Source of the DNA: a virus
DNA length: 37,662 bases
IMG/VR virus record: IMGVR_UViG_3300042922_000419
Location: 1 to 37,662 of that record
Strand: one strand, 5' to 3'
The notes beneath the pieces are model-generated. The model was not told the DNA's origin, made no database searches, and worked only from the letters and a program-made list of their open reading frames with translations. Positions within the stretch are counted from its first letter, which is position 1. Each line of letters begins with the position of its first letter. Shown one piece after another: positions 1,466 through 34,420 of this stretch. Position numbers and translations under genes: made by a program.

Positions 1466-1494
1466 TTGCATTTTTAAGGAGCTTTTGTTATAAT
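1466..1494 (+). promoter_or_regulatory. Sigma-A-type promoter TTGCAT-17-TATAAT facing away from int
   Basis: TTGCAT 1466..1471, 17-nt spacer, TATAAT 1489..1494, with TG at -15/-14. Confidence 0.45.
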
Positions 1495-1499
1495 TTATT

Positions 1500-1558
1500 T
1501 ACTTACATAAATAAAAGCTCCAACTTTTTCCGTACTGTTACCGCAGTACGGTTTTTTT
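1500..1558 (+). ncRNA. Candidate ~58-nt small RNA, antisense to the int leader
   Basis: Lies between the promoter above and a strong plus-strand terminator: 8-bp stem CCGTACTG 1530..1537 / CAGTACGG 1544..1551, followed by T7. No plus-strand gene is present to terminate. Confidence 0.35.
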
Positions 1559-32009: not shown

Positions 32010-32504
32010 ATGACGGAATATATTGAAAAAGCTTTTACCGGTTTAAAGCCATTTTGGGGAGCAATATTAGCATTTTTAAGTTACATTTGCTTTCCAGACA
32101 AGGCTTTTTTTTATGCAATGATGGCGGTAATTGGTGCGGCATTGTTTGACATAGTAACAAAATCAGTTTGTATTTGTAAAAATAATGGTGGCTATAGTAA
32201 TGCGGTTAAGACTCATAAATTATTTAGTAAAACTTTATGGACTGGGACTGTTACTAAGATATATGCTTATAGCGTTGTTTGTATTTTGACAGGATTAAGC
32301 TATCGTGTAATTTATATACAAGAAGCTGGCATAGTCCTTGGCTCTTTTGTTTATAGCGTTATGTTCATGAGAGAATTTCAATCTAATATAGAAAACTTAG
32401 TAGAAGCTGGTGCAGATTTGAACTGGCTTCTTTTATTTTCTAAGAAGAAAAATAGGGACTTGATGAAGGACTTGGAAGGGGTGGAAGAGGATGAAAATAT
32501 ATGA
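32010..32504 (+). CDS. Holin (multi-TM, 164 aa)
   Basis: Several hydrophobic helices and a charged C-terminus. Sits immediately upstream of the endolysin and overlaps it. Confidence 0.6.
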   Translation: MTEYIEKAFTGLKPFWGAILAFLSYICFPDKAFFYAMMAVIGAALFDIVTKSVCICKNNGGYSNAVKTHKLFSKTLWTGTVTKIYAYSVVCILTGLSYRVIYIQEAGIVLGSFVYSVMFMREFQSNIENLVEAGADLNWLLLFSKKKNRDLMKDLEGVEEDENI

Positions 32505-33114
32505 TGGCGAATATAAAGTAACATCTTGGTTTGGACCTCGACTATTAGCAAATGGGGACAAGCGGACACATAAAGGTATTGATTATGTAGGGCTTACCTC
32601 TAAAAATTTATTAACTGTAACTGATGCAACTGTAATAAGTAGCCAAATTATAACTGACAAAAGCAATTTGACTTGGGAATATGGCAATTACATAATCTTT
32701 GATGATGGCTACGGGTATACCTTTAGATATTGTCACTTATCCAAAAGGCTTGTAAGCAAAGGTGATAAGGTTAAAAAAGGACAATTAGTAGGTGTCGAAG
32801 GTTATACAGGCTATGTATATCCACCAGATGTGAGAGGTAGTCATTGCCATTTTGAAGTTAGAAATTCTAATAATGAGCCAATTAATCCTATGGACTATTT
32901 TGAAATTTTACAAGCAAGAGAGGAAGGAATTAAAATCATGGCAGAAATAAAACGATATAAAAACATTAAGGATATGCCTGAATGGATGCAAGCTTACGTT
33001 AAAAAGTGGGTTGAAAAAGGTTATATAAAAGGTAACGACAAAGGAGAGTTGGATTTCTCCGAGGACATGATTAGAGTTTTAATAATCGCAGAAAGAATGC
33101 AGGGAGGTAAATAA
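32491..33114 (+). CDS. M23-family peptidase endolysin
   Basis: HKGIDY...GYTGYV...GSHCHFEV (HxxxD and HxH motifs) plus a C-terminal ~70-aa extra domain. Confidence 0.85.
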   Translation: MKIYDGEYKVTSWFGPRLLANGDKRTHKGIDYVGLTSKNLLTVTDATVISSQIITDKSNLTWEYGNYIIFDDGYGYTFRYCHLSKRLVSKGDKVKKGQLVGVEGYTGYVYPPDVRGSHCHFEVRNSNNEPINPMDYFEILQAREEGIKIMAEIKRYKNIKDMPEWMQAYVKKWVEKGYIKGNDKGELDFSEDMIRVLIIAERMQGGK

Positions 33115-33115
33115 C

Positions 33116-33457
33116 ATGAACAATGTAACTTATCAAATATTAACATTAGTATTTTCTATATTGAGTTTGGTTTTAACATATTTCTTTGTCCCATGGTTAA
33201 AAGCAAAGATAGGCAATGAGAAACTTGCAAATATAGAAATGTGGGTTGATGTAGCAGTAGCAGCAGCTGAACAGATATTTAAAGCTGCAGGAACTACTGG
33301 ACAGGGTACTGCTAAAAAGATTTATGTAATAGAATTTTTAAAAGGTAAAGGAATTACAATAACGGATCAAGAACTGGATGCATTAATCGAAGCTGCAGTA
33401 TTTGAAATTAATAAAGCAAAGAACTTACTATTTACAGATTTAGCGAATCAAGAATAA
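33116..33457 (+). CDS. LL-H-type holin-like protein
   Basis: One N-terminal TM, then VAVAAAEQIF...GTAKK...LIEAAV, typical of the Holin_LLH family. Confidence 0.55.
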   Translation: MNNVTYQILTLVFSILSLVLTYFFVPWLKAKIGNEKLANIEMWVDVAVAAAEQIFKAAGTTGQGTAKKIYVIEFLKGKGITITDQELDALIEAAVFEINKAKNLLFTDLANQE

Positions 33458-33510
33458 ATAGGGGGTGATCCTTTATCTATAAAAGGTGATGATGCCTTTA
33501 AGAAATTAGA

Positions 33511-33538
33511 ACCAGGCTTAATTGCCTGGTCTTTTTTT
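33511..33538 (+). terminator. Terminator of the late/lysis operon
   Basis: ACCAGGC 33511..33517 / GCCTGGT 33524..33530, then cT7. Confidence 0.75.
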
Positions 33539-33557
33539 ATTTGTCGAAAATTTGTTC

Positions 33558-33586
33558 TTGCATTAATTGTCGAATATTGCTATAAT
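33558..33586 (+). promoter_or_regulatory. Promoter TTGCAT-17-TATAAT flanked by TTGTCGAA direct repeats
   Basis: TTGCAT 33558..33563, TATAAT 33581..33586. TTGTCGAA at 33541 and 33567. Confidence 0.55.
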
Positions 33587-33592
33587 GTAAAA

Positions 33593-33669
33593 AAGGTTAT
33601 CTCCCCCGATAACCTGGGATATTCCCCAATACCCCTTTTATGCATGGTCCTTAGTGGACCTCTTTTTTT
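33593..33669 (+). ncRNA. Candidate ~77-nt small RNA with C-rich loops
   Basis: Hairpin AGGTTATC-tcccccg-ATAACCT, then single-stranded UUCCCC and ACCCC, then terminator GGTCC-ttagt-GGACC followed by T7. No ORF and no downstream plus-strand gene. Confidence 0.5.
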
Positions 33670-33764
33670 GTTTAAATTTCAATAAAATCAACGTCATAAA
33701 ATCGATTTTAACGCACGAAAAACAAGACTTAATGTGTTTATACCTGTTGATTTTGCAATAAAAA

Positions 33765-34118
33765 CTACTCTTCTGCTTTTGTTACTGTTACATCTTCTAA
33801 AATGTAAAAATTATTAAAGACTCCCAAAACTTTATATTTAAAGCTTTCTGAATCAATTGTATATAGACTATAAAATTTATGATCTTCTCTTATAACTGAA
33901 GTGTCAGAAATCATATCAGCAAAAAATCCCATCAAAGAATTTTCAAAGTGAGTAGTTTCGACTACAGCCTCATTATTTTCTGATTTATATTCCTTATAAG
34001 TATCATTGGCTTGTTGTTTATACCATTCTTTATATTCAGCATAAGAAGGATTGGTTGCAGCACCTAATATTAAAATAAATAAAGTTAAAACCGCTCCAAT
34101 AATTAAAACTTTTTTCAT
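33765..34118 (-). CDS. Small membrane-anchored/secreted protein (117 aa)
   Basis: MKKVLIIGAVLTLFILILGAATNPSYA signal or anchor. The ATG at 34118 lies 6 nt after AAGGTG. The track GTG at 34127 sits inside the SD sequence. Confidence 0.7.
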   Translation of the reverse strand: MKKVLIIGAVLTLFILILGAATNPSYAEYKEWYKQQANDTYKEYKSENNEAVVETTHFENSLMGFFADMISDTSVIREDHKFYSLYTIDSESFKYKVLGVFNNFYILEDVTVTKAEE

Positions 34119-34252
34119 ATATATCACCTTTTTTATTTTTTAATATGCTCAAATAAAAAAAGTTTATACTTTTACGAATTAGTAGGTTCTATTTTATGTA
34201 TTAGTGCATATTATTTAGTAAGAGCGATAATTAATTTAAAGGAGTGTTAGGA

Positions 34253-34420
34253 TTGGCTAAATATGTATTAGGATTGAGTTTTAAAGATAATTCAGAGGAT
34301 AAAAAGTTACTCGACTGGATTAATGAGCATAGCAATAAAAGTGGTTTTGTAAAAGATATTTTAAAAAAGGAGATGGAAAAAGAGTTAAGAAGAAAATTAG
34401 GAATTTTTACAATGGAATAG
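34253..34420 (+). CDS. 55-aa protein, possible small regulator (first gene of the operon)
   Basis: TTG start after AAGGAG. LAKYVLGLSFKDNSEDKKLLDWINEHSNKSGFVKDILKKEM. Below the track cut-off. Confidence 0.4.
   Translation: MAKYVLGLSFKDNSEDKKLLDWINEHSNKSGFVKDILKKEMEKELRRKLGIFTME

Follow-up and report, generated by a model that had tools for sequence, protein, structure and literature searches.

In Staphylococcus aureus, prophages and islands carry small RNAs (sRNAs) such as SprD and SprX, and some of the RNAs carried in this way direct C-rich loops against Shine-Dalgarno sequences. One class of Gram-positive sRNAs is recognized by unpaired UCCC motifs, which in RNAIII, RsaE and others bind to Shine-Dalgarno sequences, and the members of this class prevent the ribosome from binding (PMC2790875). 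In LhrC, the UCCC site is present three times, in a loop, in a linker and in the terminator loop, and the three sites are redundant (PMC4132741). Prophage-carried sRNAs have been described as well, SprY being one example (PMC8501977).

We analyzed a 37.6-kb phage genome from IMG/VR (37,662 nucleotides in full, referred to here as the window), following up an original prediction that positions 33541-33669 encode a stand-alone phage sRNA with three C-rich motifs. The anatomy of this stretch is indeed best explained by a self-contained gene, but conservation reaches only to near-identical relatives, the targets put forward within the phage do not stand out from shuffled controls, and homology to RsaE/RoxS was not found. 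The reading that we favor, with a rough probability of 0.45, is that 33541-33669 is an sRNA gene acting through C-rich seeds. That a discrete RNA of ∼75 nt is made from the unit appears probable from its sequence signals. The class to which such an RNA would best be assigned is that of the low-GC Gram-positive C-rich-box sRNAs, LhrC/RsaE-like by analogy of mechanism and not by homology.

The candidate locus and its phage

The genome was recovered from soil and is complete with terminal redundancy. The phage is temperate, with an integrase gene (int) at 362-1471 on the minus strand, and its early promoters are perfect TTGACA-17-TATAAT sites, which clearly shows that it relies on host signals of the sigma-A type. 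Several of the closest named relatives of the holin come from Sedimentibacter assemblies, and the probable host is therefore an anaerobic Firmicute resembling Sedimentibacter. A search of named phage and plasmid records with 33100-34200 gave no DNA match.

A cargo region separates the lysis cassette from the integrase and contains the DUF4359-like gene on the minus strand and the T4SS-like operon on the plus strand (Table 1). The candidate would be an independent transcription unit in this region, a non-coding “moron” placed between the lysis terminator and the convergent membrane-protein gene. The lysis terminator, which the original prediction had correctly located upstream of the promoter, is also found 3′ of the holin gene in two relatives, L005 and L009. 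A second plus-strand terminator follows this strong one after 130 nt with no ORF in between, and transcription starting between the two is therefore the simplest explanation.

Table 1. Coordinates of the candidate unit and of the neighboring features in the window.
Feature	Position	Strand	Description
Lysis cassette, end of late operon	holin 32010-32504; M23 endolysin 32491-33114; LL-H holin 33116-33457		
Lysis/late-operon intrinsic terminator	33511-33530 + T7, to 33538	+	7-bp GC-rich stem, -12.6 kcal/mol; left border of unit
Direct repeats TTGTCGAA(A/T)AT	33541-33551 (TTGTCGAAAAT); 33567-33577 (TTGTCGAATAT)	+	Flank the -35
Candidate promoter	33558-33586	+	Sigma-A-type; TTGCAT (33558-33563), 17-nt spacer, extended -10 TGcTATAAT (TG 33578-33579, TATAAT 33581-33586)
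Hairpin 1 (5′-terminal)	33594-33601 pairs with 33608-33615	+	8 bp, loop UCCCCC (33602-33607), -8.8 kcal/mol
Variable 15-nt segment	33615-33629	+	Carries UUCCCC (33622-33627), forms weak hairpin 2
Linker ACCCCUUUUAUGCAU	33631-33645	+	ACCCC 33631-33635, third C-run 33632-33635
Hairpin 3, intrinsic terminator	33646-33660 + T7 33663-33669	+ only	GGUCC-UUAGU-GGACC, 5 bp, -7.6 kcal/mol
DUF4359-like gene, convergent	33765-34127	-	Small N-terminally anchored or secreted protein, 113-120 aa
T4SS-like operon	from 34253	+	Next plus-strand gene after candidate RNA unit

Several other features of the surrounding region were observed. At 33458-33470, the last holin stop codon is followed by AGGGGGTGATCC, which looks like a very strong Shine-Dalgarno sequence and has no ORF after it; we take 11 of 12 positions to be complementary to the 3′ end of 16S. 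L009 has GGAGGTGATCC at the equivalent place (minus strand, about 1010-1020). In the late-operon 3′ UTR, this sequence could possibly act as a ribosome-binding element that stabilizes the mRNA. A contig of a relative from subsurface metagenomes (X2/X3) has a 285-nt insertion at 33499-33510, directly before the lysis terminator. The T4SS-like operon includes a 748-aa VirB4-like ATPase (35377-37623, plus strand), residues 371-732 of which match PADLOC mad8, a component of the MADS defence system (E = 2.7e-13).

Promoter and upstream sequences

The original prediction described a good promoter, TTGCAT-17-TATAAT, bracketed by two direct repeats. Both hexamers and both repeats are present, but the -35 agrees with the consensus TTGACA at only 3 of 6 positions, and the repeats bracket the -35 and not the whole promoter. 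A consensus scan did not list this site because of its poor -35, and the strength of the promoter therefore rests on the extended -10, which is perfect. Host sigma-A-type transcription from such a promoter would yield a transcript about 75 nt long; we infer this transcription together with its ends, a start at about 33593 and a stop at roughly 33668. In L005 the promoter is identical except for 33587 G>A, just after the -10.

Across both strands of the genome the extended -10 motif, TGNTATAAT, occurs 4 times against 5.7 expected, which is not above chance, and the consensus scan found 8 promoter-like sites where 12.8 were expected. Counts of this kind are what would be seen if AT-rich DNA, rich as it is in promoter-like sites, had supplied fortuitous or weak hexamers here, and if the stretch held terminators only, with hairpin 1 ending the DUF4359-like gene and hairpin 3 backing up the terminator of the lysis operon. 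We regard that explanation as unlikely, and one reason lies in the same motif. On the plus strand TGNTATAAT has just two copies, both intergenic (this unit and 1466-1558). In each case TTGCAT precedes the motif by exactly 17 nt, and a short ORF-less stretch with a plus-strand terminator comes after it, while the remaining two copies lie within genes, on the antisense strand, and have no -35. The terminators-only explanation leaves the -35 common to both intergenic extended -10 sites unaccounted for.

The second of these sites forms an orphan unit of its own at 1466-1558 (plus strand), with TTGCAT-17-TGtTATAAT, about 58 nt without an ORF, and then an 8-bp hairpin followed by T7. It lies upstream of int and is antisense to the presumed int leader, a minus-strand transcript.

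The TTGTCGAA(A/T)AT repeats are a possible operator, and TTGTCGAANAT has a single other exact match in the genome, inside a gene. The first repeat overlaps a weak LexA-box-like sequence, CGAAAATTTGTTCT (33545-33558), which has 2 mismatches and abuts the -35. LexA-like sites number 6 genome-wide against 3.3 expected, which is not significant. The best LexA (SOS) box-like site of the genome, CGAACAAACGTTCT, is found at 2109-2122, just downstream of tandem early promoters and upstream of a 45-aa ORF.

Fold and composition of the predicted RNA

No credible plus-strand ORF within the unit appears in the ORF list; the one small ORF considered reads only MHGP-stop and was rejected. The ORF-less stretch with an 8-bp hairpin, a C-rich loop and a downstream intrinsic terminator is present much as originally described (Table 1). 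Folding the RNA (76-78 nt), one of the checks suggested with the prediction, gives z = -3.4 for the window. The predicted RNA would thus consist of a stable 5′ hairpin displaying UCCCCC, one or two single-stranded C-runs and the intrinsic terminator. The loop motif of hairpin 1 has an unpaired probability above 0.9 in the alleles of both the window and L005. UUCCCC and ACCCC, which had been described as single-stranded, are both there but are only partly unpaired in the window (probability about 0.4-0.8), because of the weak second hairpin. At the level of sequence, the locus shares with the C-rich-box class its own promoter, the lack of an ORF and its own intrinsic terminator, and the loop UCCCCC supplies a UCCC-type motif in a loop or single-stranded region.

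The composition of the unit is a statistical oddity in this genome. Runs of four or more C occur seven times on the plus strand in 37.6 kb, three of them within the 33 nt of 33603-33635, and a cluster like this one was reproduced in 0 of 3000 shuffles. The C content of the RNA is 29%, against 12.7% for the genome. This cluster is left unexplained if the stretch holds terminators only.

Read as G-runs, the cluster is equally unusual, and the functional strand could in principle be the minus strand, where GGGG, GGGG and GGGGG in the 3′ UTR of the DUF4359-like gene would form a sponge for host C-rich sRNAs or a site for a protein or the ribosome. A precedent exists in Bacillus subtilis, where the C-rich sRNA RoxS has a G-rich sponge (PMC8216469). 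However, this reading does not explain a conserved plus-strand promoter and a terminator present on the plus strand only, and two of the G-runs are paired in the minus-strand fold. It also counts against it that no C-rich sRNA is known in the presumed host group, and we consider it very improbable indeed. A minus-strand G-quadruplex was rejected, there being only three G-runs, and a CRISPR-repeat mimic, an attP or oriT, a DnaA box and a riboswitch were dropped on reading the sequence.

The terminator also bears on whether the promoter could instead drive the T4SS-like operon at 34253, antisense across the DUF4359-like gene in an excludon-like arrangement, with the hairpins and terminator serving as a regulated attenuator. 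The terminator stem in the window is short, so some read-through is likely, and a strong plus-strand promoter is not evident in 34128-34252. Yet an alternative antiterminator fold was not found, no Rfam riboswitch or leader match was found, the terminator is stronger in L005, and the related T4SS-like operons of L007/L008 and L100 lack the unit. An operon leader of this kind is quite improbable, and the self-contained sRNA gene remains our preferred reading of the plus strand.

The convergent gene and the opposite strand

The original prediction overlooked the DUF4359-like gene, which converges on the unit from the minus strand and, judged from the arrangement of the two, would make cis-antisense overlap unavoidable if both are transcribed. 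This gene appears to belong to the T4SS-like module. It lies at the edge of the module in opposite orientation in L005, L007/L008, L100 and the window (33765-34420), and its other flank varies among relatives (a holin, a XerC-like integrase). A defence-system check of the DUF4359-like protein gave no match.

With -9.7 kcal/mol and a U6 run behind it, hairpin 1 was scored as terminator-like on the minus strand, while hairpin 3 does not qualify; hairpin 1 read backwards is likely to be the terminator of the DUF4359-like gene. Neither hairpin has U-runs on both strands, and the order of the two is inverted relative to their own genes. The minus-strand transcript meets no U-tailed hairpin before 33615-33588 and should therefore cover the whole RNA gene, reaching at least 95 nt beyond the stop codon in the window. 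With each terminator beyond the other, the two transcripts, if both are made, would be complementary over about 75 nt. In L005, hairpin 1 is the first U-tailed hairpin after the DUF4359-like stop codon. These properties of hairpin 1, and the fact that most relatives lack the unit, would suit a pair of terminators without an RNA gene. The order of the terminators would then be “wrong”, each lying past the other and forcing an overlap, and a stronger terminator already serves the lysis operon. The DUF4359 homologues elsewhere also use other terminators, close to the stop codon.

The layout, a short RNA that is convergent with and complementary to a neighboring transcript, resembles two known arrangements. 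The OOP RNA of lambda is 77 nt long, has its own promoter and terminator, and is complementary to the 3′ part of the neighboring cII mRNA. The 3′-overlapping type I antitoxin RNAs are likewise short, with their own promoter and terminator, and convergent with a neighboring mRNA. The candidate differs from both in that its overlap is with the 3′ UTR only, its neighbor is not a small toxin, and homologues of that neighbor are found without the RNA.

Following these examples, the RNA might act in cis, controlling the stability of the DUF4359-like mRNA through its 3′ UTR, or the two promoters might interfere. The expected coverage of the whole RNA gene by the minus-strand transcript fits this explanation, as does the antisense position of the other TTGCAT/extended -10 unit (1466-1558) relative to the int leader, and in L005 the stop codon abuts the T-run of the RNA. 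On the other hand, the overlap in the window lies at least 95 nt past the stop codon, and the C-run cluster is neither needed nor explained. In four DUF4359 homologues (L007/L008, L009 and L100) the stop codon is not followed by an RNA unit, so that the RNA is not an obligatory partner of this gene. The minus strand also has no small hydrophobic toxin ORF: ORFs in 33590-33765 encode only 19-21 aa, are not hydrophobic and lack a Shine-Dalgarno sequence. A type I toxin-antitoxin system was rejected on the same lack of a toxin opposite the RNA and on the lack of co-occurrence of the RNA with DUF4359 homologues. We consider control in cis distinctly unlikely.

Relatives and distribution

Apart from the window, the unit is carried by L005, a near-identical relative on a 1.6-kb soil contig. 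In a block of 179 nt (33436-33614) running from the 3′ end of the holin gene through hairpin 1, L005 has one change (33587 G>A), while the flanks have diverged by 15-50%. The sequence of hairpin 1 is identical. L005 lacks the 33615-33629 segment, and with it UUCCCC and the weak hairpin, and the ACCCCUUUUAUGCAU linker with ACCCC is retained and fully unpaired. The terminator is kept despite indels, with another loop and a longer stem (AGGUCCA-GUGA-UGGACCU, -10.5 kcal/mol), and the RNA of L005 folds with z = -4.05. From this comparison, the constant parts are the promoter, the 5′ hairpin, one linker motif and the terminator, and a third C motif is optional; of the three C-rich motifs in the original description, the loop motif and ACCCC are thus shared by both alleles, but UUCCCC is not.

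L005 also lacks the spacer 33670-33765, which brings the DUF4359 stop codon into contact with the T-run of the RNA. In the window this spacer is a 95-nt AT-rich sequence with a AAAATCGATTTT palindrome, and metagenome contigs of X2 and X4 contain part of it (33684-33752) in different surroundings, so that the spacer could be a short element that is mobile or repeated.

Further evidence of retention in near relatives comes from Logan contigs (DNA) of four metagenome runs in three studies, which cover parts of 33453-33806; none of the public runs listed for the locus is an RNA run. The X2/X3 contig from the subsurface runs (928 nt) covers 33510-33806 with a gap count of 19, which fits the L005 allele exactly, and it probably lacks the 15-nt UUCCCC segment.

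Beyond these sequences, the unit was absent from more than 90 related-phage loci searched with blastn, nhmmer and the covariance model R1, L005 being the sole carrier. The loci comprised three and then 80 holin-linked loci from IMG/VR, two VirB4-like loci, the loci of the 4 DUF4359 homologues and eight holin-linked contigs from public assemblies. In other relatives the space after the lysis terminator holds unrelated cargo, and no analogous C-run or G-run cluster was found in the AT-rich relatives. A pattern scan with the exact hairpin gave 0 matches in IMG/VR. A looser hairpin pattern gave 0 matches in IMG/VR, 8 in JGI metagenomes, all GC-rich chance matches, and 1 in GTDB genomes, a chance match in a Caldisericota coding region.

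The original prediction had suggested looking for conservation with compensatory changes in related phages and for a match in Rfam, and it had likened the RNA to RsaE/RoxS. The unit is confined to near-identical relatives (L005 and the contigs of the four metagenome runs), and between the window and L005, the one homologue sequence, no base pair shows compensatory changes. A recent mosaic exchange, in place of selection, could account for the conserved block equally well, and for both reasons the conservation in L005 gives only modest support. No Rfam family reaches its gathering score over the whole window, and at E <= 10 the region 33400-33800 has only chance-level matches to terminator-like sRNAs, with neither RsaE nor LhrC among them. 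We therefore set aside the candidate as an RsaE/RoxS homologue, given the lack of an Rfam match even at E <= 10, and as a member of the LhrC family, for which there was no covariance-model match.

Predicted targets and mode of action

As an sRNA acting in trans, the RNA would pair through its exposed C-rich motifs with G-rich ribosome-binding sites and block the initiation of translation. The original prediction proposed phage targets on the basis of three G5 runs at translation starts (2150, 3047 and 7053). We scanned 66 phage translation starts by cofold-based binding energy; plain duplex energies gave unrealistically long duplexes. The best predicted pairing, at -16.6 kcal/mol, is with the 45-aa ORF at 2148, across its Shine-Dalgarno sequence and AUGGGGG, followed by gene 17767 (-16.3 kcal/mol) and gene 16573 (-15.3 kcal/mol). 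Shuffled-seed controls, made with the 30-nt middle of the RNA only, gave an equal or better best score in 62 of 106 cases, and the two best pairings depend on the segment that is missing from L005. The proposed phage targets thus do not stand out from controls. The three G5 runs are present as described, but they carry no statistical weight, because any C/U-rich stretch pairs with a Shine-Dalgarno sequence and because G-runs are enriched at starts: 7 of the 35 runs of four or more G lie at translation starts, a general property of Shine-Dalgarno sequences. Host mRNAs are more likely to be the targets than those of the phage.

A more elaborate possibility joins both strands. The RNA and the convergent gene could form a phage-borne, self-titrating pair in which a C-rich sRNA is held in check by the G-rich 3′ UTR of the DUF4359-like transcript, to which it is perfectly complementary and which would act as a sponge. 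The sRNA would possibly be under SOS/LexA control through the box-like site that abuts its -35, and it would silence, at their G-rich ribosome-binding sites, either host mRNAs or ORF 2148, the first of the early-lytic ORFs, which lies behind the best LexA-like box. If true, the T4SS-like cargo module would have its expression tied to the activity of the sRNA. We give it little credence.

Comparison with known regulatory RNAs

If the predicted sRNA is real, the C-rich-box riboregulators would reach beyond cultured Bacillales and into a phage whose hosts are uncultivated anaerobic Firmicutes of soil, and a further temperate phage would be found to hold regulatory RNA cargo beside its lysis genes. 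Phage-carried regulatory RNAs can reprogram the physiology of the host or provide a further level of immunity. The candidate is of a kind already known, and its narrow distribution keeps its present value low.

The known RNAs resemble the candidate in different respects. Like the candidate, SprY of S. aureus is an accessory regulatory RNA on a temperate phage (PMC8501977), and it is expressed from the prophage. The two are unrelated in sequence and differ in host, and SprY has been verified experimentally whereas the candidate is a prediction. LhrC of Listeria monocytogenes (PMC4132741) is closer in architecture, in that it is small and stand-alone, is transcribed from its own promoter to its own terminator, and carries several C-rich motifs in a stem-loop and a linker. 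The redundant UCCC motifs of LhrC bind G-rich ribosome-binding sites, an activity that for the candidate is predicted only. There is no sequence or structure homology between the two (Rfam was negative), the candidate has no C motif in its terminator loop, and it is about 75 nt long compared to about 100 nt for LhrC. Unlike LhrC, it is also phage-borne and present in a single copy. RsaE/RoxS and the C-rich-box sRNAs of Staphylococcus and Bacillus (PMC2790875) resemble the candidate in having a hairpin at the 5′ end, C-rich motifs that are unpaired and a stable terminator. While RsaE is a conserved chromosomal gene of the Bacillales and the candidate is confined to a few near-identical soil phages, the mechanism of RsaE/RoxS, occlusion of the Shine-Dalgarno sequence, is the same as that proposed here for the phage RNA.
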